A DNA stretch of 64,000 bases from NCBI GenBank assembly GCA_000165345.1, contig CM000436.1, positions 256,001-320,000 of the forward strand, in the 5' to 3' direction. A program made the position numbers and the translations under genes. The number at the start of each line of letters is the position of its first letter. Position 1 is the first letter of the stretch. Below are positions 13,231-64,000 of the stretch, one piece after another. The notes beneath the pieces were generated by a model. That model had not been told where the DNA came from. It did not search any database and worked only from the letters and a program-made list of their open reading frames with translations.

Positions 13231-14070
13231 ATGACAACAGTAATTAAGAAGAAGATTAAACTTCCGAGGAATATAACACCTGAATTTGTAAGTTTATTAG
13301 ATTAAGCTTAAAAAAAGAGATTGGTGAGAATTTCTTAATTTAAAAGAATTTCTTTCTTATTAAACAGTAATGATTTCTTAATTCTGGGAGAGTATTGAGA
13401 AATCATTTAATTAATTTTCTCTATTAATTATTGATTAACTTAACTTATTATTTTCTTCAAATAGGCTGTTGAATTGAAGGAATGTTTTGATTGGCAAGAT
13501 AGAAATGGTGATGGATTAGTTTCCAAGGAGTGTTTACTGGTATTATTAAGAGCAACAGGCCAGGTTTGGTCACTTGATGAAATTGACAAAATATGTCATG
13601 GTAAGTTTTTTGTTCTCCATTTGTAAAAAAAAAAAAGAAAAAATTGTTTAATATTGTAATATATTCATCTTTAATATTATAAAATTAAATTAAATAAAAA
13701 AATTCTTATTACTCGCAATGTTAGGACTTGGTTCAAAGGAAGTCGATTTCCAGACATATCTCGATTTAGTATCTCATAAAGTTATGTTAAAGGCTGATAA
13801 GGAAGAGTTAAGAACTGCCTTTAATGTTTTGGATAGATATGGAAATGGTAAAGTTTTGGTTAGTGATTTGAAACATATTTTGTGTAATATTGGAGAGAAA
13901 TTGACTGTAAGTTACATAAATTAACTCTTGTTTTTTAAGCTAAGCTTAAATATTTTGAATTGAATTCTATATTTTAGGAGGATGGTTTCCAAGAACTCTT
14001 GAGTATTTCAGATATTCCTGATGCAAATAGGTTAACATTTTTAACAGAAGAGGAATTTGTGAAAATGTAA
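13231..14070 (+). CDS. ELC1: myosin essential light chain (EF-hand, calmodulin-like; apicomplexan ELC1-like), 4 exons, ~155 aa
   Basis: Exons about 13231..13287, 13465..13600, 13725..13906, 13978..14070. All donors are GTAAGT and the acceptors are ATAG/TTAG/TTTTAG. Phases 0/1/0 join with no stops. Product MTTVIKKKIKLPRNITPEF|AVELKECFDWQDRNGDGLVSKECLLVLLRATGQVWSLDEIDKICHG|LGSKEVDFQTYLDLVSHKVMLKADKEELRTAFNVLDRYGNGKVLVSDLKHILCNIGEKLT|EDGFQELLSISDIPDANRLTFLTEEEFVKM. It aligns with the Toxoplasma MyoA essential light chain ([29 protein letters not shown]...). Only exon 3 is present in the ORF track (13718..13924). Confidence 0.75.
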
Positions 14071-14613
14071 GTTTATAATGGAAGGAATTGGATAAAGAAA
14101 TTGTATATGGGAAAGAAAAAAAATTATGAAAACATAAGAAGTAACTATTTTCACTATAATATTTTTTTTATCCATCCTTTCGTATTCAAAAAAAAACTAT
14201 TATCATTTTAATTATCTAATTTACTATTTTTATTGCTATATAATTTATTTGTGTAGATTTTCAGGAAATGTTAATTAATAGATTTAATTGTCTTTAAGTC
14301 TCGAATTTAAGTCAAAATAGAATTTTTCTTTTTTTGGAGGGAATTTTCTGAATGATATTATTTTGAAATATAATGTTAAATACAGATTGCTTGAATAATT
14401 AGCTGAATAAGATTTTCTATTATTGCTAATAATATTACTGTTACCAATTTGTTAGTATAATTTTCTGACTTCCGGGTTTGTATTGAATAATTTGGCTCCA
14501 AATAAAATCTACAAATTTCAAGCAATACTTACTTGTGATAAGGGTGGTATTAAATTTAGTACCAAAATATATAGGGGAGAAAAAAAAAGGACGGAAGAAT
14601 ATTATACATTATA

Positions 14614-17600
14614 ATGCAAAGTGATTTTCAGTATAAAGATCTTTTGACAGTTTTTAACATTCCAATTTCACTTTGGGTACAAAATGGGACTCATTTATTT
14701 CATAAGAATACTTCAACTTTGGTTGATAAAAATGGTAAAAGACTTTGTATTAAGGTAAGTTAAAAGGTGAAATTAATAAAATTAAATATTATATTATTAA
14801 TAAAATAAATTGATATATAGTGTATTATTGATATGTTTAAAAATAACCAAAAATCAAGTACATATTTATCACAGATTTGTGAAGATTTGATGTTGGTAAG
14901 TTAAAATAGATTAATAAAATTCATTTTCATTAAAAAAAAAAAAAAAAAAATTCAGATGATAAAATGTGAGAGAGGTAAAGGAGTTGTAAGATTTATTATA
15001 AGTGAGATTTTGGGAAATGAAAGTAATTTCATTATTGAAGAAATTAATAAAGTTGACGTAAGTTTTTGAAGTATATTTAAAAAATTATTAATGAAATAAT
15101 AAAAATAATATAATTTAAATGATAAATTTAATAATTAGGATGAAATGTTACTTAATAATCTTATAAATTTGAAGTTAACATTATTAAACAAACATTTTTC
15201 AATATCAGAAAATAAACAAAGACAAAAATTAAATGAAAATATATTAAATATAATAATTAAAAGTGTAAGTAAATTGTAATAAATATTTTATTATAAATAT
15301 TGATTTAATATAATTAATTTAACAAATAATTTTAGATGAATAATTTGAATATAAGAATGAGATCAATGGCAAAATTAATATATATACTATTTGATGATAG
15401 ACTTTCAATATACTCGAATAGTTTAATAGATAGAATAGTGGAAGATACAAAAAATCTATCAAGCTTTGGAAAGATGATTTTGAGAATGGACATAGAGAAT
15501 ATTCAATATTTAATTCCTATAATAGTTAAATTAATAGAATGCAATCCTGAGAAAGTAATAAATAATTTATTGATTGATAAAGGACTACATTTATCAAGAT
15601 TATTATGTGAAGTTACGGATAAGAAGATTTATTTTGAATATATTTTAGAGTTTTATTTACATATATTAAATAACTATCCAAATCAATTTGGAAATTTATT
15701 AATAGATAACAGTAATAGATTGGATATAAAAAGTAATAATAGTAAAGAAGAGTTATCTTTGAACATTTTAGTCGGAATAGAAAAGATGGCAATAATTCTA
15801 GCAAGATCAAGTAAATACTCTAAAAGCAATAATTATCATTCATCCAGAAACTTGGATATTGATAAATTTCAAGATACAGAATTTTCAATGAGTGACTTGG
15901 AATACATGCAGCAGGGAGGTTCTATTCCCAAGATGGGTAATTTTTTAATTAATAATTCTATGAATGAAAATAATATATTAGAGGAGATGGGAGAGCATGG
16001 TGAAAGGAGTTTGAGGATGAATATAAGCAATAGTAGTATTGGAAGTAGCATTATGAACATGAATAATAATCACATAAGTTATGGAAGAAAGGATTTTATG
16101 GAAATAAATGAATTGGAAGAAAAGAAAGTTGTTGATGGAATTAATATGTTTGGATTATTGAGAAATAGGGAAGAAGATGATAATAGATTAATGAAGAAAT
16201 TGATTCAATTTTTTAAAGGTTTTATGCTATATAAAAATAAAATGGAATTATTTTGGAATTCTGATAAAGAAAAGATAGATTTAGAAGATGATGAAGTAGA
16301 TTCAAATATAGATAATAACTGCAAAAAAAACAGATGGATTATGGAAGGAGAGTGTTTTGAAGTTGTTCATAAAATAATTGAATGGATAATAGAATTACTA
16401 AGAAATAGTATAGAAGTTGAATTAGATAACTTAGCTTTAGATTGTATTTTGCAAGTATTCACACAAGAAAAGTGCTGTAATTATGAGGAAGAGAAATCAG
16501 AAGCTGATGAAGAGCTTTCAGACCTTAATATAAATCAAAAAGATAATGATAATAATAAAAACAATTTATTGGAAAAAAATTCCGCAAATATAGAATTAAT
16601 AAATGAAGATAAATCGGAAGATTTTATTTTTAATATGAAACCTTTAAATATGAAATCCAAAAGAGTAACTTTCAAAAGAATTGAAGAAATTCCACCAAAA
16701 AAAAAATTAATAACTTTTAATGATGTGGATAAAAATAAATTACGTGTAAATGCATGCAAGCAAGGCGGGTCAAAATGTGACAATAATACCGGTATAGAAC
16801 AAAATAAATCATGTGGAAAATTATGTTTTCACCAGATTTTTGTAATAAAACATGGCCAGTATTTGTTGGATATTTTTTTAGAACTTTTTGATGATTATTT
16901 AAGAAAATTTGGATTAAATTTTATAAGAAGAAAGAGTGGAAATGCAAAGAGTTTATCATTTTATGACCAAAGTTACAAATATATAATCGATAATGAGCAG
17001 CAGATTGAGGAGGTATTATATAAAATAATTCAGGGAATAAATAATATTTCAGATGGGGTTGCTATTCAATCATGTCCTAGACAGATATTTGCAATAAGTT
17101 GGTTTATGGAATTTATTTTATACGGTTTTTCGAATGAGGAATCTGTATTAAAAAGTAAGCCACCAGTTCCTTTGTATGGTTCATCAAGTATGGATTTAGT
17201 AATGAAAGCTGCTAATATGGATCAACCATTGGAGCATGCACTATTAAGTATTTCTACAAAATTTAGTGAGGAAAGTAATCAAAATAATGAAGAAGTGAAT
17301 CAAATTCAAAAAGGATTAATTAATCAGATTGATACTATAAATCAGGTTCAAGTAGAAGTTGTTAACAAATTAATCTCTCTAACAGAAAGGATGTGTAAAT
17401 GTTTGTATAGCAAGGGTAAAAGAAACTCTAAATTAGAAGGTGAACATTTTAATGGAAGCTTTTATCAAGTGGATATCAAAAAGTTATGGAAACTTAATGG
17501 TACAGTTTACAGTAGGGATCTGCTACTAGAATATTTTTCAAATATCCTCCAAATTACAGAAAAGTTATTCGGTTTTAAAGGTGTTAAAGTTATTCAATTC

Positions 17601-20600
17601 TTAGATTCTACTGATAAGTTATTTGAATTTTATACCCGAGAATTAAAAAATAAGGAACGGAATATAGTTTGTTTGTCCCAACTATACTTAATTCAGCATA
17701 TTTTTGATACAAACTTAACAAGTGAATACGAGGTAAAAGATTCTTTAACTAAAAATAAAGATCCTCAAGCAAATTTAGTATTTAATATTTTTTCTATAGT
17801 ACTTCAAATTGATAAGAGAATTCAAGATAATCTTGAAGATTTGGATGAAGTAAATGACCAAATTCTGCAAAAGGCAGATAGCAAAATTAAGCTATTAATT
17901 AATAATAAGGTTGGAGCTCAGCTAATATTCCAATGGATTAAAAATCCTAATATTGGCGATCAAGAAATTTATGGAATTAAAACTAACATTTTAATAAGAT
18001 GGATAATTCACATTTCTAAACAATTATTACATCCAATTATGAATGAAAATGAGATTAGTAGCAGATTAAAGTATTTAACCAAAGAAAGGATTAAAGCTTC
18101 CTTGCTACTAGACGACTCTGCTTCAAACGATACAATTTCTATTGTAATTTCTCTTTTAACATTTTGTTATGGCTATTTTCCAGATCAAGTTATTCTATTC
18201 ATTTTAAAAAATATTAATCGAGAAGAAATTCAGGATCTTGAATATCCAGGAATATGTAATATTTCTGAAGATATTGCTCAAAAGATTAATAATTATGGAA
18301 AATCATCTGCTTTTGGAAATCTTTCCAATACAAGAAATATCCCAACTAGAGTACTTCTTTATTATTCATCCATACTTTTGGATAATACCAGTAGAAATGG
18401 TAAAAAGAATATTGATTTATTTCAAGATTATTCCTTCCAAAAAGACAAAATTGTTGCTAAGATTATTTCCATATTAGTTAATTCAAATTTAAGACGTAGA
18501 GAATGGCTACTTTGGCATTCAAAAAATTTTGACAAAATTGAACTTTTTTCAAATTCATTACATAATCTTATTCAATCAAGAGGAGAAATAGGAAACTATC
18601 AAGAACAGAAAAAAATTGAAGAGCAAATCTTTAAATGGATCTATGATCGAAATATCGATTATTCAAGATATCAGGTCAGTTCTAGACCTTTTTCAATATC
18701 TTCTTTTTACTTTGGATTGGTTGATTTCTCAATTTCCCCTATTTTAGAGAAATCTATATTGCAAAATGTATCATTTATTAAGTTTCAGATCAAACAATTA
18801 CTAAATCTTAGCTCTATAAAACCCAACACTTGTACTGAATATGAACTTGAGGATTTCATTCAAAAGCTAAGTATGAACTTGAATTTGTTCATCTTTTCAA
18901 TTCAAAGTTATATCGAAAGAAACGATCAACTTAATTTTGCTGATATACTTACTATTGAAGAAGTTACTTTACCTTTAAAACTATTTTTAAATATTAATAG
19001 TGATGAATTTGATTTCAGATTTAAGGCAATTATTGGCCATTTAACTTTAAAATTCATTTCAGTTTTCTTTAAGCCAAGCTGGAGAGAGTCAAACTTTCAA
19101 GAATTAAATAAATCGAATCCGTCCTCACAAGTATTTGGAATTAAAACTTTTACAAGTCTTGATAACTTTGGAAAAAGTTCAAACAGAAAAACTTCAAGTT
19201 TATTATTTATTCTAGTAAATCTGATGGATGAATTAACAAAGTGGTAAGTTTTTTAAATATACTAATTTAATCAAATAGACGAATATATCTTTATATTTGT
19301 ATATACTTTTTTTAATTATTTTTTACCTTCAGGATGAATGAAATTTTCAATATGAACAACTTTGACAAGTTTTATGTATCTGCCTATTTAGAAACGTTTT
19401 CAAGTTTGGTTTTGGAATTAGGAATTAGAGATAACATCCTTTCTCAAAGTATGGATATCGGATCAGGAGGTGAAAAAGGAGAAATATTTAAACTCAAGAT
19501 AAGGCAATCACTAATCAATTTAGTTCAAAGTGACTCTACTGTTTCTTTAATAGAGAAGATATTAAACTATATCATTATTTGCAGAAGAAAAGGTAACAAT
19601 TTGGATGCGGACAAATCAAGTTGTTTAATGGGTATCTCCATATTACTACTTTCCATGTTATCAAGTAAAATCAAAATATTCAGAACTAATGGAAGATTAG
19701 AGAGTCTTATTGATTCTATTTTAGCTCATCCAACATTGTTATTTCATGCTGAAAAAAGCTCAAAATGTGGATTAAATTCTCGCTTTTCGTCTGATGAATA
19801 TGATAATTCGCTTATAGATAACAATACAACGAGTTTCAATCTATGTAACTATTGTCTTAATTTTGGCTTCAATCATAACATAGAAGATATTAAATTAATA
19901 ACCAATGTTTCTATTATTGTGGCATTGCTACGTCTAAATCATGTAAATAGTAGAGCAATATCAAAAAGTAACTTAATTAAAGATATTTTTCTACAAAGCA
20001 TTTCAGGGATTTTAAATACAAATAATAAAGCATCATCAGTAAGTCATGGATATATGGGAATTATATTATCGTCAATATATTTATCATATGACCAAATTCA
20101 GTCTTTGAGCCTTGTACATAATTTGTATATTCAAAAATTCCTTGTAAAGGAGTTTGTTTGTGATGTTTTAAACTTTGACAAGAATCCAGTTGAAAATTTA
20201 AATCTTTCTCCATGTATGATATTTCATTATTCTGTATTATTTTCATATTTGGTTTTTATATTGAAGACTACTCCTTGGTGGCTTAATATTTCTGATTTGA
20301 TCAATCTAACATTCATAAATAAACTTGGAAAGATTTATAAATCATTACAAACTTCCGCAATTATTTATAATGATGAGAATGACAATATTGGAGAATATTT
20401 AATTAGCTTGACAGAGATTCTTTTAAAAATTGTACAAGAAACAATAATGGCTCGCTCTAACTCATCTTCTAGTTATATTCAAGGTAAGTTAATTTCTGAA
20501 TAATTGAAATATATATAGAGCGTGTTTTAAAATATTTGATTAACTTTTTCTTTCTGATTAAGATGAAAAAAACAATGCAGAAAATAACGGAGTAATTATT

Positions 20601-20876
20601 AAATTAATACAAGAAATCCTTAAAAACCAAGAAAATGAAAATATTCAAGACTATAATATAACATTAGTAAGAGAACATGCAAATTCAAGAAATGGAAATA
20701 TTCTTAAAAATACCTCAAATTGTAGAAATAATAGAGGATCTGGATGCTTTATCTGTGGTTTTAAATACAAATTCAAATACTTTGAAAGTAAAGAGAGTTT
20801 TATAAGTAACTTTTTTATTTCTCAAGTATTAAAGTTTTCAACTATGGAGATATTTAAAAGAATTATTGAAAATTAG
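14614..20876 (+). CDS. very large alpha-helical protein of unknown function, 7 exons, ~1940 aa (joins ORF-track ORFs 15336..19247 and 19334..20503 plus 5 further exons)
   Basis: Exons 14614..14754, 14821..14895, 14956..15057, 15139..15264, 15336..19243, 19333..20483, 20563..20876. Every donor is GTAAGT. Acceptors are TATAG, TTCAG, AATTAG, TTTAG, CTTCAG, TTAAG. Exons 1-4 are all phase 0 and open. Exon 5 ends ...ACA AAG TG|gtaagt and exon 6 starts cag|G ATG, which restores TGG and continues in frame. Exon 6 ends CAA G|gtaagt and exon 7 (G+AT GAA AAA...) is a 104-codon open frame to TAG at 20874-20876. No conserved domain recognised. Confidence 0.65.
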
Positions 20877-21137
20877 TATCAAATTCAAATATTTACTCAA
20901 AATTTTGAATTTTTTATTCTTAATATATATTGCTAAAATTTCCAACCCACTCATAATATTTGCAAGTGGACAAATGCATGCAATGCAAATGCATGCATGT
21001 GCATGTATTTGCATTATGACATCCAAGCCTGACAAAAAGAAAATGTATATTATACATAGGAGGAAAAAAAATCAAGTTTTAACAATATAAACAAACATAT
21101 TAAAGATAGACAGAATTAATTATTCAAAAGGTTAAAA

Positions 21138-23571
21138 ATGGAATCAAGAATATTAAAGTTTGAGAGTAAGTTTCAAATAATAAAAAGAGGAGATTATAGT
21201 AGAAAATAAAATTTCTGCTTATTGGAAATATATCATTGAAGGAAAAAAATTTTAGAATAAAGTGATTAACTATTTTTCTGTTTCTTTTTAATAAATTTAG
21301 CTAGTGCAGGTAGATTGTGGATTGCAGGAACATATGGAATAAACAAAAAACCTTTTAACAAGAAGATAATTCAGGAAGTAGTCGTAAAGTCAGAAGTGGC
21401 AGATTTTGTTACTTTGGCGAATAATATGAGTTATTCTTTAAGAGTTTCAGCTACACTGTTGAGAGGATTGATGCTCATTTATGATAAGCAATGGATATAT
21501 TTGGGTAAGTTTGGCCTTTAATTCCAATTTGGGGATGATTCTTATAAGAAAGTTTAATACTAAATCGTTATTTTATCTCATTCAGAATCAGATTTGGATA
21601 ATTTATATTTGAGGGTAAGTCTAAAAATAATTACAAATTTTTTTTTGATCATCATTATTAACAAATCATTACTAAAAATAGTTTAGGGAAGGAAGAAATG
21701 AGACAGAAAATAAAAATAATTGTAACACATTAGTTAGGAGGAATAGAGGAGAAAAGAAGAATTCTTTATTGACTGAGTTAATTTCAATAAATTCATCACT
21801 TAGTTTGAATGGCGATAATTTGAGTAATAGCAGTAATAATGATCGAAATGGTGAATTGGTTTTGTCATTGGATGCTGAGAATTTTGTTTTGGACTTAGCA
21901 AACAAAAGTATTGATGAATTGAATTTTGAAAATATTCTTTTCAAAGGTAATGGAAATAGTTCAAATATTGGAAGGATTGAGGATATTACTCTTCCTGAAA
22001 TTAATAGAAATAAATCCAACTTGTCAAGAGATTTTGGAGTTGAGCAGGATTTCGTAAGTCTAGAGGAGAGTAATAATGAAGAAAATGAAGATGAAAGTGG
22101 AAATAGTGGAGGAAAAAATAGCATAAAAAATTCATCAGATAGAAGAGGAGAAAGCCAGATAGTACTATGGTCTTCAATAAATAATGAGGATTTTATGTTT
22201 CAGGGAGAAGAAAGTGAAGAATTACTTGAACAATTAGAAAGAAAAAAGTTAAATGCTGAAAGAAGCAAATTATCGGATCGAGATAAAGAAAATCAGTTTA
22301 TGGAGGAGACTACTGAGATAGTTTGTGAAGCTCAAAATAGAGGAGAAAATAGAAAAAGATCTAGATGTTTAAGTCATCTTGATGTTGATTTAAAGTTTAA
22401 AGGAATTAGCTCTATTAATAAGAATCAGCTTGAAATGTTGGTATTTAATGATGAAATAATTGCTGGTATGGATGAAAGATTAAGAGGTTGGGACTCATAT
22501 AAGTGGTGGCAAACAGAAACCCAAAAAAATGAGAAAAGTCAATTTCTAATAAAGTTCCAAAGCCTTGCAATACGTAGTATGAAAAAATCCAAGAGAATCT
22601 CAGTATCAAACCAAAATGGTAGTAATTTAGACATGTATGAAGCAATAGAAAAACATAGAGGTGAATATGATACAGGAGTTGAGTATAGTAACGTTGATTT
22701 GGGATTTGACCATTTTAATTTGGATAATGGTTTTGTTGGATCTCCAAGTAATCGTTTTAGAAATGGCCGTGATACTATTGAAAGCTCAGTTAATTATTAT
22801 GGAGATGGTGCAAATTCTTCAGGTGGAGCAAGATTACAAAGTGGAAGAGAGTCTATGATTTTCTCAGATAGTAGACGAGGTTCCAATGATGGAGTTAGGT
22901 TATCAACCATGTTAGAAACTGGGTCAGTATTATCATACAATAGTTCTCCTTTCCAGTTTGAAAAAAACTTAATGGGTATCCGAAGAGATTCGTCTAATTC
23001 TGAATTACAAAGAATTGTGAGATCTGGAAGGCTTAGTGGATCAATAGTAGGTAATAGCTACGATAAACAATACAGAACAAATTCTATTGCAACCAGTATT
23101 AGTGATATATTTTGTATGGAGGAAATTAAATCATCTAATTGGAGCAAAAGTGGAATCACTACAAGTAGTGGAACTTATAATTTGAAGACTTATACTGTTC
23201 AGAAATTCATTGCAACTAGAATGAAAGAAATTAGAGAAATTAGAAAGATTAATGAAGAAAATGGCTACTTAATGGACAATAATACTTCAAACAAAGAAAA
23301 TATAGGTAGCCATAATAGAGAGGAAGAAAATTCTGGAACTTTCAATAAGAAAAAAGACAATAGAAATGTTGAATCTGATGATAATGAAGAAGAAATGTCA
23401 ATTTACTTAAGTGAATTATTACCAGAAAAAACTGCTACAAAATGTACTGCTGCAGTTTTTTTCTATCATCTATTAGTTCTTGCAACATATAATGAAATCA
23501 AACTCACTCAAAGTACACCTGGGGGTAATATTAAGATTACAAAAACTAGCTCATTTAATGAAGAAAGTTAA
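21138..23571 (+). CDS. RAD21: Rad21/Rec8-like cohesin kleisin subunit, 4 exons, ~717 aa
   Basis: Exons 21138..21165 (MESRILKFE), 21301..21504, 21586..21614, 21682..23571. Donors GTAAGT x3. Phases 1/1/0 join cleanly. The N-terminus ...SAGRLWIAGTYGINKKPFNKKIIQEVVVKSEVADFVTLANNMSYSLRVSATLLRGLMLIYDKQWIYL matches the Rad21_Rec8_N domain (LAKIWLAAHWEKKLTKAQ...[24 protein letters not shown]). The C-terminus KCTAAVFFYHLLVLATYNEIKLTQSTPGGNIKI matches the Rad21/Rec8 C-terminal winged helix ([27 protein letters not shown]). The ORF track shows only fragments, with TTG 'starts' at 21315 and 21769. Confidence 0.75.
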
Positions 23572-25914: not shown

Positions 25915-26061
25915 AGATAATTTTGGATACTTGTTATTGAAAAAAATATGTAAATTTTAAAGGGATAAATAAAAGAAAATTGTTATTATAAATGATTTAA
26001 AATAAAGTCTATTTACTTATTTATTGATCTATCTCTCCAAGCAGATTTTCCTTTAATCATT

Positions 26062-26878
<817 letters not shown>

Positions 26879-27712
26879 TTAAATAGTAATCAAAATGTAT
26901 CAAAATTCAAGCCAAGCTCCACTTCATATATATTATTAATTAAATGGTGAAAGAAAAATCCAAATATCAAGTTTGAAAGAAATTATTAATTAATTTGATA
27001 AATGACTTTTCAGATTATCAATTTTAACTTCACACTAAGATAAAAAAAATTAATTTGTGGCAAATTTCGGAATTAAAGACAAATTTCTACGCCTTTTTCA
27101 AACTTACCTAGAATATATTGAAAAAAGAATTTAAGAGAAGCCAATGCAATACTGAACTTCCTTTTTCAAAATACTTTAATTCATAAAAATCCCCACAGAT
27201 ATTCCTCTTTTTTTTAATTTCCTCTTTTTTTTTTTTTAATCTCTTTCTCCTTTCTTTACAATTTCCTTATTTAATTTTGTGTTTATTTTTTACATTTAGA
27301 CTCACAAAATCAGTTTTTGGCGCCGAGTAGCGCCAACAGATCAAAGAAATTTATTATAAAATAATTTTATGACAAGTTATGTAAGAATGGAAATAAAAAT
27401 TTTTAACAAGATTTAACAATTTCAGAAAAAATTCAGAGTTGCATATAAAAACAGTTTTGAGAAATTATATTCTATTTAACATTTTTGATCATTTTACCAT
27501 TTATTTTTGATATCTATCAACTTTATTTAAAAAAAAAAAAAAAAAGCCCCCACAAACGCACTTTAGCTGATACCGGCATTATTTCATAATTATCCACATG
27601 CATTAATTATTAATAATAATTTTCATGTGGACGCATGCATTAATTGTCAAAGTCTGCAAATAAAAAGCACCGGCATATAATTTTAGTTTGATAAATGTTT
27701 GTACGTGTGGGT

Positions 27713-27765
<53 letters not shown>

Positions 27766-28842
27766 ATAATATTCTTTACAGAAATTAAGAGATTGAAATA
27801 TATTTTGTAGGAAATGGAAGAATATCAATGGAATATATAAGTGAGAAACTTTATTATTGTGAATAAAGAGGAGGAAATGGGAATGATATGTGAAAAGAAG
27901 ATTTAAAAAAAATTAAGTAAAAAGTTTTCTATTAATATTCAAAACAAGTATTTATTAAATTAACAAATCACGAATTCATATTATTTAATTGGTAAAAGTA
28001 TTTAAATTAAATTATTAATCATTTTACTAAGCAAAAATTCACTTAATTATATCAAGATACCAAAATTCCGTTTTGGCGGCAAACACACAAAATTATGATA
28101 CTTGGGAATTGGATTGAATAGAGGGTGGATGTGGAAGGATATTATATGATGCATTGGATTTTATTTTAATGATCTTAACATCAATATCATTTATTAATAA
28201 TATTATTATTATTTATAATAACAATAATATACCTATAAATAAATATTATTTTATTGCTATTTAATTGCAATATTTTTTCTTATTGGTTTTATTTCAAAAA
28301 AGTTGATACTTGAGTAATAAATACAAAGTAGGAAAGAAATTGTGATTAAGATAAAATATTAAAGTGTATTTTATGGCAAATAATATGGTATAAAGATCGG
28401 TATAAAAAGGGGAATATACGTGAACTAAGGTTATTTTTCATATGTAAACAGGTAATAAAGTGTGTGAATTTAAAGATTTGTTTTGTTTTTTATTGTCAAG
28501 CACAAAATTTAATGGTGCTCAATATATTTTAGTAAGGCCAAGGTAATTTTGGATCAATTTTAAGGGTTTAATAGTTATATAAATCAGGTATATTTAGAAA
28601 CAGGGTTAAAGCAAAAGTTAAACCTATATGAAACTCATTATTAAAAGGAAATCCAAATAAAGTTATTAAGATACATATAAGGGAGTGTAATTGATAATTA
28701 GGGTGTTTTTAAACATAACAGAAATAATAAAAGGTAACAGGTTCAGATTCAGGTTAATTTCAGGTTGGGAATTATAATCAAAAGTGTCGTTTATTTTAAT
28801 TTTTAATATTTTACATTTAAGAAATTTTTAGAATTAGAGAAA

Positions 28843-33276: not shown

Positions 33277-33817
33277 TTCCTGATTTTGATGAGGAAGTCC
33301 TTCAAATGAAAGTTCTCTTTTAACTTTCGATTAAATATTTATTAATAATTTATTTACTTACGTGTCAAATTTGACATGTCTGGCGCCTAAATGGGAATGT
33401 ATCTTTAATTTTACAAGGGTAAGAGGCGTAAAGAAATTTTAGGGTTAAAATAAAACGAGAAAAGATGAAGAGAGTTAAGAATGGAGAAAAATGAGCACTT
33501 TTGGTTAAGGTTTGTTCATGTTTAGATTAAAGGATGAATTTTTTTTTTAGATATATAAATATAGATATATATATTAAATTTTCCTTTTTGTTAGTTACAA
33601 TTTGGATTAAAAAAAAATAATTCAAAATAGTTGGCGCCATTTGTTTTAATATGTTTTCAATTGATAAATTCTTTAATTAATAGTATATATTAATATATTT
33701 TCAATTATAATAAAAATCAGGAAAGAAAACGCAGAATTAGCATGAAATTGTGTGTGAGACAAAAATAGTTAACTAATAACAAAGATAATCTAGAAGTGGG
33801 AAAAGGTGCATAAGAAG

Positions 33818-42957: not shown

Positions 42958-43653
42958 GATTTTGTTTTAATTTCAAACTACTTAATTTACTTGGATAATT
43001 TTAGATAGATAGAAAAAGAGAGATAATGAAGGAAAAAGAAAAAAAAACAAGAAACAAATCAATTCAATATTAATCGCTATATTACTAGTCCATAGGAATA
43101 ATCTGTCAATTTTACGATTTGTACTCCAATTTTACTTTCTTTCATTATATTATTCATTTAAATATATTATTTCTATAATCTTATTCAACGAATCCTTTTT
43201 TTTATTTTTCTTTCAAATTTGATCTTAATTCATCTTTTTTTTTCCCCTATTGAAATTAACCGATATAATCAATAAATTAAAAAAAAGTTTCCCACATGCG
43301 GCGGGAAAATATTGGCGCCTCATGCCAGATTAATTTATATAATTTTATATAATGGATCATTAAGTTAAATAATAGTGCAGTTAATAATAATAAAAGTTAA
43401 TAATTGTAATATAATAATAATATTAATATTTGAAAAATTAGTATTAAAAATATATTTATATATAAATAAATATACATAAATATATAAACATTTATTTATA
43501 AATATATATTGGAGTTTAGTGGGAAAGAAAAAAGATCAAGTAAATAAGAAGGTTTGTAGAAGATTGTGTGCAAAGAATTTAAGTAATATTAGGATAGTGT
43601 AAATAAGTTTGGATATTATATATAAATATAGAAAAGTAAGTGTTTGGTAGAAA

Positions 43654-44313
43654 ATGAATGGGTTTAGATTGTGTGGTGATATGCTCCACCTTTTGAGCAT
43701 TTTTCTTCTTTTAAAAAAGTTAAGAAAGAGTAAGAGTTGTTTGGGTATTTCATGTAAGATGCAGGAAATCTATTTGATAGTATTTTGTAGTAGATATATT
43801 GATTTATTATGGAGTTTTGTATCAGTATATAATACTTTAATGAAAGTTGTATTTATTGCAAGTACTAGTTATTGTATATATTTAATGAGATATCAAATTC
43901 CAATCAGTAGAACTTACGATTCAAATGCAGATAGTTTTCCATATCATAAATATTTATTATTACCAGCCCTATTATTGGGTTTTATTACTTCTGAAAAATG
44001 GATAGTTTCTGAGATATTATGGAGTTTTTCAATCTGGCTTGAATCTGTTGCAATTTTGCCCCAATTAGTACTTTTACAACAATTAAGAGAAGTAGAAAAT
44101 TTAACATCAAATTATGTTGTAACTATGGGACTTTATAGATTATTTTATATTTTTAACTGGATTTACCGTTTCTATGCTCAACATTATGTAAACTGGGTTG
44201 GCTGGATTGGAGGACTAATTCAAACAGCAATTTATGTGGATTTCTTTTACTATTATGCAATGAGTAAATGGTATGGCCAGAAATTGATACTTCCTTATTC
44301 TATTGAGATTTAG
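43654..44313 (+). CDS. ERD2: ER lumen protein-retaining receptor (KDEL receptor, ERD2), 219 aa
   Basis: [40 protein letters not shown]...[23 protein letters not shown]...[17 protein letters not shown] is colinear with human KDELR1 ([37 protein letters not shown]...[20 protein letters not shown]...LGLYRALYLANWIRRY). Confidence 0.9.
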   Translation: [219 protein letters not shown]

Positions 44314-44693: not shown

Positions 44694-45360
44694 TTAAATC
44701 TTTGAGTTTTTGATGATTTGGTCCAACATAAGTTTTTCAGCTATAATAAGTTTTTCTTGTATATATGGAGATCCTCTATATTTTCCACTTGCTTCATTCA
44801 ATTCAAGCATTCTTCTTGCAATCTAAAGAACAATATGAATAATTCAAGTTAGAAATAATGCCAATATATGAAGATACATTTTTTTAAAAATTTCTTTATT
44901 AGTTGAGAAAGATTTGAACCATATTTCAACAGAAATTTGGTTATACAAACTTTCAGAAGAGATTGATATAATGATATTTATTATAAACTACAACACTTAC
45001 CTTTTGTATATCTTCTACAGAATACTTCTTCCCAAATTCGGTACCTAGGATTTTGTTTGCTTCTCCAAGAGTCATTTTACTTCCAAAATTGATAGATCGA
45101 ATTGCTTTAATACCATCTAAATCAATTTTAAAGTTTTAATGATAGAATTATATTTGAATATTTAACAAATTTTAGATAAACAAACCTTTATATGAATCTT
45201 TAAAACATTGCTTTACAACACTTTGTAAGGATCCTGAAGTAATCTTAATTAACTTAGTTATTACTCTGGAAATAGTTATTATTAATTATTATGAGTCAGA
45301 AATTTTGGTAAATTATTCAAGTCAACACATCTTAGCTTACCTTAAAGTCCTCGGAGACAT
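44694..45360 (-). CDS. PAM16: Pam16/Tim16 (Magmas)-like J-like-domain protein lacking the HPD motif, 4 exons, ~123 aa
   Basis: Minus-strand exons 45341..45360 (MSPRTLK), 45186..45265, 45001..45116, 44694..44822. Donors GTAAGC, GTTTGT, GTAAGT; acceptors CCAG, TTTAG, TTTAG; phases 2/1/0 with no stops. Product ...DGIKAIRSINFGSKMTLGEANKILGTEFGKKYSVEDIQKIARRMLELNEASGKYRGSPYIQEKLIIAEKLM. It aligns with yeast Pam16 ITLDEACQILNIKEP-LTKEKIEERYTRLFKINSPEKGGSFYLQSKVYRAAERL. The HPD tripeptide of true J-domains (Pam18/Tim14) is replaced by NEA, which is the Pam16 hallmark. The second donor (GTTTGT) is weak. Confidence 0.6.
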
Positions 45361-48256: not shown

Positions 48257-49556
48257 ATGGAGAGTATAAATAAAAGATCAAATAGAATAGAGTTAGCATT
48301 GGATGATTGGGCAAAGCTCGTGAAAAAATCATATTCAGTAGAAATTGATCAAATTAAAAAGAAACACTCAAAAATATTAAATCAATATAAACCTGATCGA
48401 ACAATATATATGGAAAATGTATTATCATATCAATATACTAAAAATATTTGTTTATTAGCAAGTGAAATAATTCGAAGAAATGGTGTATCATATTTAATAA
48501 TTGATTTCTTGAAACAAATGTTATTTTTAAGAGGTTTTTTTGCATTAACAAAAGACAGTATACTAATGCAACTTACAAGATTTTCAACATATATGAAATT
48601 AGTAGAGGTAAGTTTTCCTATTATTATATTAATAAAGTAAATGAAATAATTACATTTTTATTACTTATTTAAAATATTAGGATGGAATGAATGCTATATT
48701 TGAATCAAATAATAGTCAACATAAATCAACATTAAATATGATCAAGGAAAATAGAAGAAGAATTCTGATATATAATCTTAGAAAAGTTCTAGGGAGTGGT
48801 ATTGGTCTTAAACATGATAAACAACCAGTATTTTATATTAGAGTAGTTGATCTACATTTGAAAACAACTTTATCATTTGGATCAATCAGTGAACTTAGAC
48901 AATTGATTGTTTGGGAATTAGAAAAAGTAATATATTCTTTTTCAGAAATATCAATGAAAGAAAAGAATTTTATATCTCATATTTCATTAGTTTTAGATTT
49001 TAGTGAAATGGGGATTTATACTTGTAAAGTGGAATTTCAATCTTTTATGAGATTAATTTCAGAAATTTTAGATTTTTATTCTCCTTTATTAATTAATACA
49101 ATAATAATTCACAAATCAAAATCTTTAAAAGAGAATTTATGGTATTCTATTGAGCCAATTATTTCATTATTATATGATAGAGAAATTATTACAATTTTTA
49201 CTGATACGGAAGAAGAACTTTGGAAACTTTTGAAACCTATGAATAATGCTATTCTTCATTCAAGGGGTGGATTTATACCAAATACTTGTTTATACCCAGT
49301 TTGTTCTAGATCAACTGTTGTTCCAAATATTGAATTATGTATTCAAAAAGAAAATGATCAACAACATGAAACTTGCAATAAATATTCTACATATAAAAGT
49401 TTCTTTTTATCATTTAAACCAGATTTATCAATTAAAAAATTCATTAATAATTGTGTAAGTATAGAATGTAAATCTATTGATAGATCATATTGGACTGAAG
49501 AACAAAATGTAATAAAGACTGAACAAGTTCAGAAAAATTTTATTTATGATATTTAA
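48257..49556 (+). CDS. Sec14/CRAL-TRIO-like lipid-binding domain protein, 2 exons, ~409 aa
   Basis: Exon 1 is 48257..48607 and ends ...MKLVE|gtaagt. Exon 2 is 48681..49556 and starts ttag|GATGGAATGAAT in phase 0, in frame with the ORF-track ORF 48687..49556. PVFYIRVVDLHLK, VLDFSEMGI, MRLISEILDFYSPLLINTIIIHKSKSLKENLWYSIEPIISLLYDREIITIF and ELWKLLKPMNNAILHSRGG follow the order and spacing of the CRAL-TRIO signatures (PVLYIRPGKFDPK; VIDLKGFSL; ILQDHYPERLGKIYIINAPWIF...KPFLDEKTRSKIHFL; ...GG). Confidence 0.6.
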
Positions 49557-49890: not shown

Positions 49891-50230
49891 ACAAACTTTA
49901 TGTCACAATTTAATAGAGGTTAGAACTAGTTGATAAAAAAGAAAAAAGAAAGAAAGAAAGAAATTAGAACACAATATATATGTATTTGGTAGAAAAGGTT
50001 GAGTTATACTTGGAATGCTATAAATATGAACAAGCAGTAAGTTTTAACAAATATATTTTAAATAGTGATCTATTTGTACATTTTCTTTTTTTTTTTGAAA
50101 ATCAAAATATCATATTAATTGAAAAGAGTATAATTAGATCAAATATATATAATAAATATTTATTGTTTTAACTTGTTATATTAGTGTAATTATAATTGAT
50201 TATAAATCAAAAGAATTAGCAAATATAGTA

Positions 50231-50475
50231 ATGGAATGTATTAAGCCTGATTTTATTTTATCTAAAAATACGAAAGATTCAAGAAGAGAAATAATGGTAG
50301 ACAACACAGAATTAATAGTGTAAGTTAACTTTACATGCTTTTTGTTTTTCAGTTTATCAATAACTTCAGTGAAATAGAAAGTTCTAATGTTCAAATTCTA
50401 AGAAAAACAGTAAATGCAATATATGGAGCTTTAATTTTGTCGACTAAAACAATTGAAGAGTTTAGTAATATATAA
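50231..50475 (+). CDS. small spliced gene, tentatively roadblock/LC7-type dynein light chain (3' two exons only; 5' exon(s) unresolved)
   Basis: Exon 50231..50319 (MECIKPDFILSKNTKDSRREIMVDNTELIV, donor GTAAGT) joins in phase 2 to exon 50370..50475 (acceptor CTTCAG; VEIESSNVQILRKTVNAIYGALILSTKTIEEFSNI*). KDSRREIMVDNTELIVVEI resembles roadblock [23 protein letters not shown]. Upstream, ORF 49980..50171 contains MYLVEKVELYLECYKYEQA|gtaagt and ...QNIILIEKSIIRSNIYN (compare roadblock GVQGIIVVNTEGIPIKST). I could not find a consistent splice path between these pieces. Confidence 0.35.
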
Positions 50476-50881
50476 GAGTGAATTCTTCACAATTTATATC
50501 TTTATTGAATTTGAGTATGAATCAAGTTCTTTAAAAATAGGTCTAATAAGTAAAAAGTATTAATAATAGATATTAATATTCCAATGAAATTTAATAACTT
50601 TTTAAAAATATATATCTTTATGTATGTAAATATATCTATATGCATAAATAAAAATGTTAAAGCTTGGAAATATATAATATTTATCTATTTACCTGTATTC
50701 ATACATATATATAGATAAATAGGTAAATATTTATTAGTTTTATTTCTTTCCACTTGTGAATGGATATTATCCGTGATTATATCAACTTTTCCCCTTCCCC
50801 TCATATTTGGCGCTCAAAGGTACCGTTGTATGTAATAATTTACTGAGGGAAAAAAAGGATTATTAAGCATTAAATAAATAA

Positions 50882-50919
<38 letters not shown>

Positions 50920-51081
50920 TTATATATATATTAAAGGTAAATCAGGAAAGTAGTAAAATTACGAGGATTAATAGTTCTTCACTAATACTTGCATATTTTC
51001 AGTCAGAAAGCCAATATAAAAGAATCTAATATATGTGGATGTAAATAAGTATATACTAAAGGAAAATAAAGTCTTAGATAT

Positions 51082-52199
<1,118 letters not shown>

Positions 52200-52970: not shown

Positions 52971-54533
<1,563 letters not shown>

Positions 54534-55243
54534 ATATTTTCTTTAAGAGAGATTAAATAAATATTTGCTATTCAAAATACATCATAAAGAAAAATATTTA
54601 AAAGATTAAATATTAATAATAATAATAATAATTTACAATTTAAAAACATTTTCAGATTTAAACCAAATTACTTTGATTAATATTTAATTTAAGTAGTATG
54701 TAAACAATACACATATTATTATTATTATTATTATTATTATCATTATTAATACTCATATGCTTCTTTTTTCTTCAATCTTTTAATTCTGTCTCATTTTTAT
54801 TTGCATTTATTAATAAAGTTGTAAAATTTGGTTTCCACATTAATTTTTTTATATTTATATACCGGTATATTACGTAATACAATAACGGTATTATTTATGT
54901 GGATATTAAATATATTACGTTTAAATTGCATGTACATGTACATGCAAATGCAAATACGTATGAATACATAAATCTAATATTCTGTATATATTTATGGTTG
55001 ATAATTGGCTTAGAAATATACAAAAAATGTAAGAAAAAAAAATTGTATTGACTAAATAGGAAAGAAATTATTTATTTATACAAAGTAAAATCATCAATGC
55101 TAATTTATAAATATTCAAAGAACTTAACTAAACCTTCTTTTTAATAATTCACATTTTATTGCTTACTTTCTTTGTAATATAAAGTGCCAAAATAAAGCTT
55201 TTAATATATTAAATTTGATTCAAATTGGAAATATGGGACGATT

Positions 55244-60399: not shown

Positions 60400-60523
60400 C
60401 TTTAATAGAATTTTGTTTTATTTAACGCTTCTTATTAAGAATTTCTATTATTAGCAATTTATTTGCTTTACTCATTCATTTCTATGTGTATGTTTATTTA
60501 TATATATTATATATATTATATAT

Positions 60524-60571
<48 letters not shown>

Positions 60572-60784
60572 GTATATGTATTAGTTTTTAATGCTTTCAC
60601 TGAATATATTTATCAATAAACACTCTTTTCTTTGATACAATTGACTCACTACTTTTCTTACCTTTCAATGTTCTTATTTTTCTCTTTTAAAATCTTAAGT
60701 ATTATTATTATTTTTTTTTTTTGCCTTTACCCTTTTTTCTTGTATGATCACTCCCTGACACCTGGTATCTTATGATCATGCACT

Positions 60785-60826
60785 TCCCGCCAAAATGCGT
60801 ATGCATGCAGAAAATCTGGCGCCAAT
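60785..60826. promoter_or_regulatory. motif cluster TTCCCGCCAAAA / TGCATGCA / TGGCGCCAAT upstream of coronin (-)
   Basis: Direct read. Three distinct known motif classes within 42 bp. Confidence 0.65.
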
Positions 60827-61197
60827 ACTGTACAAATTAATAATAAAATTATTATTAAAAATGTTTAATTTAATTAATCAAATCAAATCATTTTAAAATT
60901 AAGAAAAAACAAAAAAAAAGAAAATATAAAAATTTTCTTTATTATGCTTTGCTCCATTTTTCCTGTTTGAATCACAAATCTTTTTTTTTCAAAGAAAGTA
61001 AATTATTCATATAATTTTGTAGATAAAGCGCGCAAAACATGAGAGTAGTTTACATATAAAATGTAGGAAAGATGAATACTTGATGTTGAGTGGAAAAGAA
61101 GGGAGGATGGTAAAAAAAAAAAGTTGTAGAATAAAAAGCTTAAGTAAGTGATTATTTCTCCTTTTTTTTTAGAAAAAAAAAGAAATAACTATTTGAA

Positions 61198-61904
61198 TTA
61201 ATTATAGTTAGTTTCAATAGATAATGATTCATTTAAAGAGTAATCAGAAAGATCATCAATAATATCGTCTAACTCATATAAATACCTTTCTTTTTTATTT
61301 TTCCATTTTTCTTTAAGTTCATTTAGAACTAATTTCTTTTTATTATTTATTATATTTCTTTTATCTATTGTAGTATTATTTAAAGAAGAATTCAAAGTTT
61401 CTTCTGAAATAGTTGATTCTATACTATTTTCAGCATGTAATGTTTCTTCTGATTTAGTTAAAGTTTCTTCCAATTGTTCATTTCCTGCTTTAACATGCAT
61501 TTCCATCCTTGTATATTGTAATAATCCACATGTTCTACATCTGCAAATACTAGTATCTAAAAATTTACAAATATTAAAGTTGAAAATTTTAATCTAGCTT
61601 AGAAAGTTCTTGGAATTAATCTCATTTCAAGACTTTCCCGCCATTTCTAAATTACTCTTACCTTTTGGTACTATGGTATATGCAATACATCTAGGACATA
61701 ATACTTTTATGCATTGAAAGGCTTTACCAAAATATGGATATCCAACAAAATTAATGCATTGACAGAAATAACATTTAATAAAAATACCCACTAATTATTT
61801 ATATATAGTTATAGGTTTTATAATAATTCTTATTTTTTTTTTTTTAACTTACTAACATATTCATTCTTAGTATTACATTCAGAGCAAACCACTACATTAA
61901 CCAT
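61198..61904 (-). CDS. Cys-rich zinc-ribbon protein (four CxxC-type pairs) with acidic/Ser-rich tail, 3 exons, ~179 aa
   Basis: Minus-strand exons 61853..61904 (MVNVVVCSECNTKNEYV), 61662..61790 (MGIFIKCYFCQCINFVGYPYFGKAFQCIKVLCPRCIAYTIVPK), 61198..61556 (DTSICRCRTCGLLQYTRMEMHVKAGNEQ...). Donors GTAAGT and GTAAGA; acceptors AATTAG and TTTTTAG; phases 1/1. The alternative GTTAGT donor after TAT would put a stop in exon 2, which supports the model given. The ORF track shows only the 3' exon (61198..61506). Confidence 0.55.
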
Positions 61905-62089
61905 GGTTTCCCCTCCATTTGTTTTATTTTTTTCATAGAATACTCCTATTTTAATTAATTTATTCTTCTCTAAAAACTCTAATCTCTCTTTTATTTGTTT
62001 TAATTTCCTTTTTTTTCTTTCCTTTAATTTTTTTTATTTTTAATTTTATATTATATCCATAAATTATTATCTTTATTGCAAATTCAGAT

Positions 62090-62144
62090 TTTCCCGCCAT
62101 TTGTGAGGTATCTAAAATTTGCATTTCCACGCTTTGGCGCCAAT
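62090..62144. promoter_or_regulatory. TTTTCCCGCCATTT and TTTGGCGCCAAT boxes in the divergent promoter between the zinc-ribbon gene (-) and the 62410 gene (+)
   Basis: Direct read. Confidence 0.65.
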
Positions 62145-62409
62145 ATGAGGGGAAAATTATGGGTAACTGATTAAAAGAAATTGAATTGGAATTAAATTGG
62201 AGGAAAAAAAAGGAAAAAAAAAAAAAAGCAAAATTAAGAGAAGAAGAATTAGAAAGTTAAAGTTTGGAATTTGAGATCCATTTAAGGAGTAAATATTGAA
62301 GGAGGAAAATATAAACAAAAATAAATAAATAAAAATCCAACTATAAATTGATTCATATGTATAAAAAATAAGTGATCAATCACTTTAATTTTGGATTATA
62401 GTATTAATA

Positions 62410-64000
62410 ATGTTTGGGAAACCAAATAGTAAAGGAGTGGGGGGTAACAAATTAGTTATTGGTGCTAATGTGAGAAATAACAAAGATTTAGATATTCCAA
62501 TATCTTTTGGAAGATCTTCTAAGGACTATATAATAGAAAAAAAGAAAGAAAAAGAAAAGAGGATTTATGAAAGAATTAAAGGAAATAAAATGAAAATTAT
62601 ATCTTATTATGTATTACAATACAATTCATATAAACTTAAAAAAAGAGAATTTTGTAATGATTTGATTCATTTAATATCACAAAATCATAAAGACATAAAC
62701 AAATTGATTCAAATCTTTAGATTCACTCTAAAAATTAGTTCTAATGGTATTGAACAAGATATTGAAAGATTTAATATGATTATTGAGAATATTCATACAA
62801 ATTTTGAGAAAGTTTCTATTGAAATATCATTCAGTAATCTTTTATTTCTCTTTAGAAATTGTCTAATATTAATATTTCTTAATGATCAAAATAAAATTCA
62901 TAATATTAATAAAAATTTGGTAAAAAATCTTGCTGATCAAATATTTTACTCATTTTTTTCAAGATCTAATTTTCAAGATCAAAAGGTACCGAATATGCAA
63001 ATTAATAAGAAAAATTTTATTAACATGATTTTTAATTTTTTAATGATTGATTTATTTTTTATTAGATATTTTGAATTAAAAATCTTAAATAAAGAACTTG
63101 AAAATGAAATTATTATTGATATATTTAATGAAGTTTTTCAACTTTGTATATCCAAATTATCCAGCAAAGATAAATTGAATTTTTATTATATGGGTAAAGA
63201 TTTAATAGATTTTCCTAAAAGTGATCACTTTCTATTAGAAAAATCTAAAAAATTGAGTAAATACAATAATTCTCAAATGGAAATATTTTTTAAAAATAGA
63301 TATTTTTGGATTATATCTTGTTTATTTACTATTTTATTTAAAACTAACAATATTATTACAAAAGTTAAAACTCAAGAATTATTTCAAACTTATTTAGAAC
63401 TTTTGGATTTGGATTCTTTTCAAAATTGGATCATGAATGAAAATCAATATTCTATTAGAGTTATTAAAAGTCCATTTCAACAAATTCCTCCAAATTCACC
63501 CTTTTCTTTACTATTACTAAATTATTCTTTCTTTAATTATATTCAAGTTAATAAGAATTATTGTAAATTATCCAAAGTTATCAAACTTAATGAATTAAAG
63601 AAAATGAAAGAAACTGATCAAAAAGAATTTGTAAATACTATTGAAAATAATCTTTTGTCTATTTACTATATAATCAGTTCTTGGAATTTCTCACCAGATA
63701 CTTTAATTACTATAGACGAGACAATTTCTAACAAGAATTATACTAATAGAGATGAAATTATTCAAATGATTAGTTTTTTATTTCAAATAATTATACAAAA
63801 TAATAATACACAAATCAATTCAGATCAATCAAAATTTATCAAAGAAAAATTAAAGATTATGTATTTGATTCGTTTATATACTTTATTTTTAGATTTTCAA
63901 GGGAAATTCTTACTATTAAGTACTTATATAAAAAATACAGATATTATTAAAGATCAAAATATATTTTTTGGAATAAATAATCAACAATTAAATGAAAATC
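62410..64000 (+). CDS. hypothetical protein, 5' part only (ORF open to the window edge, >530 aa)
   Basis: ATG at 62410 (MFGKPNSKGVGGNKLVIGANVRNNKDLDIPISFGRSSKDYII...). No in-frame stop through 64000. Absent from the ORF track, presumably because it runs off the window. Preceded by a TTTCCCGCC / TTTGGCGCCAAT box pair at 62090-62144. Confidence 0.55.
   Translation, partial: MFGKPNSKGVGGNKLVIGANVRNNKDLDIPISFGRSSKDYIIEKKKEKEKRIYERIKGNKMKIISYYVLQYNSYKLKKREFCNDLIHLISQNHKDINKLIQIFRFTLKISSNGIEQDIERFNMIIENIHTNFEKVSIEISFSNLLFLFRNCLILIFLNDQNKIHNINKNLVKNLADQIFYSFFSRSNFQDQKVPNMQINKKNFINMIFNFLMIDLFFIRYFELKILNKELENEIIIDIFNEVFQLCISKLSSKDKLNFYYMGKDLIDFPKSDHFLLEKSKKLSKYNNSQMEIFFKNRYFWIISCLFTILFKTNNIITKVKTQELFQTYLELLDLDSFQNWIMNENQYSIRVIKSPFQQIPPNSPFSLLLLNYSFFNYIQVNKNYCKLSKVIKLNELKKMKETDQKEFVNTIENNLLSIYYIISSWNFSPDTLITIDETISNKNYTNRDEIIQMISFLFQIIIQNNNTQINSDQSKFIKEKLKIMYLIRLYTLFLDFQGKFLLLSTYIKNTDIIKDQNIFFGINNQQLNEN

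Follow-up and report, generated by a model that had tools for sequence, protein, structure and literature searches.

Short GTAAGT introns and the gene models built on them in a 64-kb stretch of Cryptosporidium parvum chromosome 8

How much of the gene structure in a compact genome is lost when annotation follows open reading frames (ORFs)? The question is raised by a stretch of Cryptosporidium parvum chromosome 8 comprising 64,000 nucleotides (nt) (assembly GCA_000165345.1, contig CM000436.1, positions 256,001 to 320,000 of the forward strand), referred to here as the window, with its first letter as position 1. Gene names such as cpbgf_8001010 and CPHLJ_8g980, reached through exact protein matches in four C. 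parvum assemblies, show that the chromosome is number 8. The GC content of the window is 20-32% throughout and ~27% overall. An initial annotation, made from the sequence alone, had proposed that at least 10 of ~27 genes here are spliced. For each gene, splice models have now been enumerated from its annotated start to its annotated stop, and the results pooled for the region from 13.2 to 64 kb. This yields 22 GT-AG introns spread over nine of ~23 genes, which lowers the earlier tally (~28 genes is the count for the whole window). Very probably all are U2-type (GT-AG) spliceosomal introns of the ordinary kind seen in compact genomes with few introns; one large protein within the set is most likely encoded by a single seven-exon gene.

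The intron set and its conservation

The large gene carries six introns; the ELC, Rad21 and Pam16-like genes have three each, Pcc1 and the zinc-ribbon gene have two each, and the Rab4-like, Sec14-like and CCT genes have one each. The intron numbers given earlier for all the named genes agree with these rebuilt models. As had been proposed, the introns are short and AT-rich: they range from 50 to 178 nt (median 79, mean 95, using an AAG acceptor for intron 6 of the large gene), and their GC content is 8-28%, with a mean of 18% compared to ~27% for the window. All 22 begin with GT and end with AG. The donor hexamer is GTAAGT in 19 cases, with GTAAGC, GTTTGT and GTAAGA found once each, exactly the rare variants previously listed. 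A U12-type donor (RTATCCTT) would resemble GTATCC or ATATCC, and no donor among the 22 does. If intron 6 of the large gene is given the CAG that was first assigned to it, the acceptors comprise 15 TAG and 7 CAG. The earlier description of a YAG acceptor after a T-run stands only in part: one acceptor is probably AAG, and a run of at least four T's within the last 30 nt is present in 13 of the 22 introns (T makes up 47% of the tails and A 40%).

The position of these introns within their genes is 5'-biased. At this one locus, 13 of the 22 fall in the first quarter of the coding sequence (CDS) (p = 7e-4) and nine in the first tenth. Four genes begin with a start-codon micro-exon; those of CCT (24 nt), the Pam16-like gene (20 nt) and Rad21 (28 nt) had been recognized before, and Pcc1 (11 nt) is an addition.

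The frequency of the donor hexamer itself is consistent with this inventory. Counted on both strands, GTAAGT occurs 46 times, about twice the 23.6 +/- 4.9 found in dinucleotide-preserving shuffles. The excess of ~22 is near the number of donors, and when the 19 CDS donors are subtracted an approximately chance number remains; the ~25 leftover sites equal the shuffle expectation. Several other GTAAGT sites were considered as further donors and rejected: that at 43636, which is positioned 18 nt upstream of the ERD2 start, has no usable acceptor, and those at 14067, 14532, 57701 and 61144 look like background. No Rfam RNA family was found in the window.

Are the 22 intervals real introns? Splice anatomy, restoration of the reading frame, deposited proteins and conservation together support the reading that they are. 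In eight of the nine genes the spliced translation equals a deposited C. parvum protein at every residue (QOY398xx, IOWA-ATCC; WRK338xx, BGF), and for the ninth, the large gene, the deposited pieces of 109, 487 and 1744 amino acids (aa) are reproduced exactly from the window. When existing models are compared, as had been suggested as a check, all but two of the 22 introns are found in one or more of those deposited for C. parvum; the CPATCC (IOWA-ATCC, GCA_015245375.1) and cpbgf (IOWA-BGF T2T, GCA_035232765.1) models come closest. In addition, Pfam domains (Ras, Rad21_Rec8_N, Pcc1 and EF-hand) continue over the splice junctions.

Orthologous DNA from C. ubiquitum, aligned to each gene region independently of its annotation, has GT..AG at the aligned place for all 22 introns. 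The exons are 82% identical and none of their 20 insertions and deletions (indels) is off frame; the introns are 66% identical, and 40 of their 45 indels are not multiples of 3. Intron positions and phases also agree with the annotated orthologues of C. ubiquitum and C. ryanae for Rad21 and the large gene. In particular, the Rad21 introns follow nt 28, 232 and 261 of the coding sequence in C. parvum, C. ubiquitum and C. ryanae alike, and the ELC introns follow nt 57, 193 and 375 in both C. parvum and C. ubiquitum.

These observations bear on whether the intervals could be frameshifts, assembly errors or decaying pseudogenes that merely look spliceable. The intervals recur in four independent C. 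parvum assemblies that are at least 99.9% identical to the window (99.86-99.99% for GCA_015245375.1, GCA_035232765.1, GCA_031892065.1 and GCA_048859185.1, none of which equals it outright), C. ubiquitum retains both GT..AG and frame-preserving exons, and the products hold complete conserved domains. Such an origin is scarcely credible and is effectively refuted. Two negative results weigh against genuine introns: look-ups of the nine complete spliced proteins gave no Logan contig that encodes one, and a scan of metagenome contigs for the sequence of the ELC exon 2-exon 3 junction gave no match. (The Logan-derived members of the protein clusters are unspliced genomic ORFs.) That the introns are removed from mRNA is taken from the literature.

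The features of genuine introns at this locus can be placed in a simple scheme. GTAAGT is fully complementary to U1 small nuclear RNA (snRNA), and a near-invariant GTAAGT 5' splice site could pair fully with the U1 5' end; such pairing, inferred or drawn from the literature, would be the cause of the strong donor consensus. At the other end of the intron, a loose T-rich tail would precede a TAG or CAG acceptor. The introns lie mostly near gene 5' ends, such that several genes open with an exon of 11-28 nt that holds little beyond the start codon. Because the introns are placed 5', ORF-based calling drops start codons or N-terminal domains, or splits genes. Intron-poor genomes reportedly have 5'-biased introns in general, as Mourier and Jeffares are said to have described in 2003; the present locus, a single one, shares this bias both in the placement of its introns and in its four genes with first exons of 11-28 nt.

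Very little of this anatomy is unusual for the genus. Irimia and Roy (2008, PMC2483917), in describing intron-poor eukaryotes, gave the proportion of Cryptosporidium introns that start with GTAAGT as 84%, compared to 19 of 22 (86%) here, and found no clear branch-point motif in C. parvum; none is evident in the present introns, although no search aimed at one was made. Like the introns of intron-poor genomes described there, those of this locus are short and AT/T-rich, and nothing material differs. Their mean length and GC content (95 nt, 18%) likewise fit the published Cryptosporidium type, which has a mean of ~87-99 nt and a GC content of ~22% (PMC4637869 Table 1; PMC13125899 Table S1). The rare donors GTAAGC, GTAAGA and GTTTGT and the one AAG acceptor are within what sister-species annotation contains.

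The large gene at 14614-20876

The large uncharacterised gene (14614-20876, + strand) is where the rebuilt set departs from the deposited one. The model has seven exons and encodes 1938 aa, or 1932 aa with an alternative acceptor. Introns 1 (14755-14820, 66 nt, GTAAGT..TAG), 2 (14896-14955, 60 nt, GTAAGT..CAG), 3 (15058-15138, 81 nt, GTAAGT..TAG) and 4 (15265-15335, 71 nt, GTAAGT..TAG) are of phase 0; intron 5 (19244-19332, 89 nt, GTAAGT..CAG) is of phase 2, and intron 6 (20484-20562, 79 nt, GTAAGT..AAG) is of phase 1. Intron 1 is present in CPATCC_0001030, and C. ubiquitum and C. ryanae have it at the identical position; intron 2, which is in a deposited C. parvum model, is conserved in the orthologues. 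Intron 3 is found in the C. ubiquitum and C. ryanae orthologues, and intron 4 is also conserved in orthologues. Intron 5 matches cpbgf_8001020 exactly and has conserved counterparts in C. ubiquitum and C. ryanae.

The six-intron model, whether of 1932 or 1938 aa, is not among the deposited C. parvum proteins. None of the deposited C. parvum models that were compared includes intron 3, exon 4 (15139-15264, 126 nt, + strand) or the intron 4 donor, and none uses exons 3 and 4 correctly. What has been deposited differs from one set to the next. Iowa II (2004) has bare ORFs of 1303 and 389 aa. CPATCC has a 109-aa protein (exons 1-3, running into intron 3) and a 1760-aa "partial" one; CpBGF has 58 aa and 1744 aa, the latter starting from an internal Met (15474). 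Two other sets have 1374/1375 aa (exons 1-2 joined directly to 15336, with a stop inside intron 5) plus 487 aa, and one C. hominis set has 2515 aa, in which the gene is fused with Rad21 (OLQ18329.1; 14614-23571).

These records could be taken at their word. The locus would then hold two or more genes, a small upstream ORF and a protein of ~1750 aa, with exons 3-4 and introns 3-4 unused; the parts might even share one polycistronic transcript. The divided models favour such an arrangement (109 + 1760 aa in CPATCC, 58 + 1744 aa in CpBGF, 1374/1375 + 487 aa in the two other sets), and C. parvum is reported to produce polycistronic transcripts (bioRxiv 10.1101/2025.01.17.633476). However, the four public model sets conflict with one another, and the upstream exons have the marks of coding sequence. 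Identity to C. ubiquitum is 84% in exon 3 and 91% in exon 4, neither of which has an indel, compared to 65-70% in the flanking introns. Substitutions are concentrated at third codon positions: by codon position the ratio is 9:10:43 for exons 1-4 against C. ubiquitum (p = 1e-8), and 1:2:8 for exon 4 by itself. In C. parvum the four upstream introns are all phase 0 and all GTAAGT..YAG, and the same positions have GT..AG boundaries in three species. Finally, the annotations of C. ubiquitum, C. ryanae and C. xiaoi all have a single colinear protein, with lengths of 1937-1949 aa. Separate genes are, on this evidence, unlikely.

The orthologues argue for the single gene in another way. The C. ubiquitum protein (cubi_03324, 1947 aa) is 74% identical over 100% coverage, and those of C. 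ryanae (FG386_002142) and C. xiaoi have 1949 and 1937 aa; cubi_03324 and FG386_002142 are each one gene, like the rebuilt C. parvum model. Mapping the orthologue proteins back to DNA shows agreement in both codon and phase for six of six introns in C. ubiquitum and five of six in C. ryanae. The C. ryanae gene differs in having no intron 6, and the C. parvum gene differs from both in being annotated as two or three genes. Taken together, these comparisons indicate with good confidence that the large protein is the product of one seven-exon gene; the six-intron structure first proposed is thus backed by orthologues and by codon-position evidence, though it has not been deposited for C. parvum.

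Some points count on the other side. CPATCC and CpBGF, both informed by RNA-seq, leave exons 1-4 unjoined to the remainder, and the internal-Met start at 15474 in CpBGF could reflect transcript evidence. Another is the acceptor of intron 6, which is ambiguous: besides the AAG at 20562 there is an in-frame CAG at 20580 (giving an intron of 97 nt), and because both candidates are in frame, alternative use is possible. An end at AAG 20562 is needed to reproduce the deposited 1744-aa (cpbgf_8001020) and 487-aa models, and the intervening 18 nt correspond to coding sequence in the C. ubiquitum alignment. Intron 6 most likely ends at AAG 20562, not at CAG 20580.

The identifiers of the large gene were looked for in the main text of published papers, for per-gene evidence and polycistron lists, and are not mentioned there. 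No Pfam family was found for three orthologues and no relative in the PDB, and orthologues were found in Cryptosporidium species only. The best conserved part among C. parvum, C. ubiquitum, C. ryanae and C. xiaoi is aa 1-148, encoded by exons 1-4.

The smaller spliced genes and their neighbours

The eight other spliced genes pose no comparable problem of structure, since each product is an exact match to a deposited protein. The first is the ELC gene (13231-14070, + strand; four exons, 155 aa; QOY39848.1/WRK33845.1). Introns 1 (13288-13464, 177 nt, phase 0) and 2 (13601-13724, 124 nt, phase 1) are conserved in C. ubiquitum; intron 3 (13907-13977, 71 nt, phase 0) is spanned by the EF-hand_7 domain (aa 90-154), and all three are GTAAGT..TAG. 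The product aligns to calmodulin over aa 14-155 in a single stretch. Of the label ELC, no more than "calmodulin-like", for an EF-hand protein, can be upheld.

The Rad21/Rec8 gene (21138-23571, + strand; four exons, 716 aa; QOY39851.1/WRK33848.1) has introns at 21166-21300 (135 nt, GTAAGT..TAG), after the 28-nt first exon, at 21505-21585 (81 nt, GTAAGT..CAG) and at 21615-21681 (67 nt, GTAAGT..TAG), after a 29-nt internal exon. C. ubiquitum and C. ryanae share all three, which the Rad21_Rec8_N domain (aa 4-96) spans.

The Rab4-like GTPase gene (26062-26860, - strand; two exons, 216 aa) has a phase 1 intron (26604-26751, 148 nt, GTAAGT..TAG) that is conserved in C. ubiquitum and across which the Ras domain (aa 14-174, the full profile) is uninterrupted. 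Its top PDB match is human Rab4A (E 1.3e-84, aa 6-187 in one stretch), and this ranking supports the label Rab4. A further candidate, absent from the first list, lies upstream on the same strand: an interval at 27035-27107 (73 nt, GTAAGT..TAG), ~175-250 nt upstream of the start codon, for which C. ubiquitum retains both splice sites and the flanks. This is probably an intron of the Rab4 5' untranslated region (UTR).

The Pam16-like gene (44694-45360, - strand; four exons, 114 aa; QOY39862.1/WRK33858.1) contains two of the rare donors. Intron 1 (45266-45340, 75 nt, GTAAGC..CAG) follows the 20-nt first exon, and it and intron 3 (44823-45000, 178 nt, GTAAGT..TAG) are conserved in C. ubiquitum; intron 2 (45117-45185, 69 nt, GTTTGT..TAG) has GTCAGT..TAG at the same place in that species. 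The label is no more than a resemblance, to a J-like domain lacking HPD, and searches by Pfam and PDB sequence, lax thresholds included, gave no match that would confirm it. Several deposits (QOY39862.1, TRY50112.1, KAK9170789.1) call this protein "ER lumen protein-retaining receptor", a name that appears to have been transferred from the adjacent ERD2 gene (43654-44313).

The CRAL-TRIO/Sec14-like gene (48257-49556, + strand; two exons, 408 aa; QOY39864.1/WRK33860.1) has one phase 0 intron (48608-48680, 73 nt, GTAAGT..TAG), conserved in C. ubiquitum. Downstream of it is a gene that had been called roadblock-like, with one or more introns. It is indeed spliced, with two introns, but its identity is Pcc1, a KEOPS subunit (50026-50475, + strand; three exons, 83 aa; WRK33861.1): the product matches Pfam Pcc1 (PF09341, E 2.4e-13, aa 4-78) across both introns. 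Intron 1 (50037-50184, 148 nt, GTAAGT..TAG) follows the 11-nt first exon, and intron 2 is at 50320-50369 (50 nt, GTAAGT..CAG); both are conserved in C. ubiquitum. The CPATCC model of this gene differs, with 49 aa and no intron 2. The C. ubiquitum model (64 aa) omits a conserved 11-nt first exon, ATGAATAAACA followed by GTAAGT (nt 9003-9016 of the C. ubiquitum piece), which matches that of C. parvum.

The choline-phosphate cytidylyltransferase gene, CCT (51082-52199, + strand; two exons, 346 aa; QOY39866.1/WRK33862.1), has its 77-nt intron (51106-51182, GTAAGT..CAG) after the 24-nt first exon, conserved in C. ubiquitum. Two deposits of a 386-aa "CCT" (KAL5366845.1, WKS79364.1) are over-fused, running from the Pcc1 start to the CCT stop (50026-52199). 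Last is the Cys-rich zinc-ribbon gene (61198-61904, - strand; three exons, 179 aa; QOY39870.1/WRK33866.1). Its intron 1 (61791-61852, 62 nt, GTAAGT..TAG) is conserved in C. ubiquitum, and its intron 2 (61557-61661, 105 nt, GTAAGA..TAG) has GTATGT..TAG at the same place there. Pfam and PDB sequence searches did not confirm the zinc-ribbon label, giving only faint zinc-ribbon Pfam matches.

Several other features of the window deserve mention. Upstream of the annotated ATG (33276) of a Gar1-domain gene, at 33300-33376 on the - strand, is ATGTCAAATTTGACAC followed by GTAAGT, and an AAG acceptor ~59 nt downstream joins in frame to give MSNLT-RLPHQNQE-MEVQ; a start micro-exon may have been missed by annotation in this gene. 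Clusters of (T)GCATG(C) repeats, together with GGCGGGAA/TTTGGCGC-like motifs, are present at 13120-13175, 20965-21015 and ~50800-50815, directly upstream of the ELC, Rad21 and CCT genes. We take the GCATG and GGCGGGAA/TTTGGCGC-like clusters to resemble the AP2-type and E2F-type promoter motifs of Cryptosporidium. The divergent Rab4 (-) and 698-aa (+) genes are separated by a gap of ~1.9 kb (26861-28842), several times the published mean intergenic length (~550 bp), in which no ORF of at least 40 aa and no Rfam match were found. At 52971-54533 is a mucin-like secreted protein with a His-rich run, HHHHHHHHNHHHH, then ~100 nearly all-threonine residues; the antisense and shifted-frame ORFs over this gene (53236-53703, 53420-53878) are repeat artefacts. 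At the right edge of the window a HECT gene is open from 62410 to the window end.

Intron density, annotation history and meaning

Is the region unusually rich in introns? It might be a real intron-dense island, between 13 and 64 kb, in which introns have been retained non-randomly. The 22 introns in 50.8 kb compare to 7.6 expected from 1364 introns in 9.12 Mb, nine of 23 genes are spliced, and the 21 kb immediately upstream contain eight genes and no intron. Because introns cluster within genes, however, the gene is the fair unit of test. With an assumed genome-wide share of spliced genes of 17-20%, which is an estimate from published counts and not a published figure, the probability of at least nine spliced genes among 23 is 0.01-0.03 in a region chosen after the fact; extending the set to the remainder of the window or to the flank (nine of 28-31 genes) gives p = 0.04-0.15. 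Gene content, moreover, hints at no mechanism. A true island is improbable, and regional enrichment is not compelling.

What the locus does display is the effect of ORF-style calling, in which small multi-exon genes are truncated, split, fused or missed. The prediction that annotation by longest ORF would truncate or split these genes is borne out by the 2004 Iowa II record, whose models truncated or split five and which has no record for three. The ELC model is a 76-aa partial, Rad21 has 458 aa instead of 716, the Sec14-like gene is given as 127 + 289 aa instead of 408, and CCT is a 341-aa partial; the protein clusters of the Pam16-like, Pcc1 and zinc-ribbon genes contain no Iowa II record. 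Later RNA-seq-based annotations have already mended most of the 2004 errors here. Genome-wide, the 2004 annotation had 237 introns, with 4.3% of genes containing one or more; reannotation using RNA-seq brought these figures to 688 introns and 10.8% in 2015 (PMC4637869). The share increased again with the 2022 reannotation (PMC8744675), which states that RNA-seq supports 100% of the IOWA-ATCC introns. In CryptoDB release 63 (2023), IOWA-ATCC has 3892 genes and 1364 CDS introns, whose mean length is 87 nt (PMC13125899, Table S1).

On balance it seems probable that even the newest C. parvum annotations still under-call introns. Each would be without 2-3 of the 22 CDS introns; those at 15058-15138 and 15265-15335, which bound the exon at 15139-15264, are undeposited, so that cpbgf_8001020 would have seven exons and ~1938 aa, and a conserved Rab4 5'-UTR intron would exist. 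If this stretch is typical, the introns of the genome would number ~10% above the 1364 listed.

Short GTAAGT introns and damaged annotation at this locus are true but already known: the problem of ORF calling has been recognised by the community and largely repaired through RNA-seq, and the understanding of splicing, or of the parasite, is unchanged by the result. What is gained is limited to a corrected model of one large, conserved protein of unassigned function, along with a small number of mis-annotations now flagged. Cryptosporidium research that depends on full-length proteins, including CRISPR tagging, lists of vaccine candidates, orthology calls and proteomics databases, needs exon-intron structures to be right.

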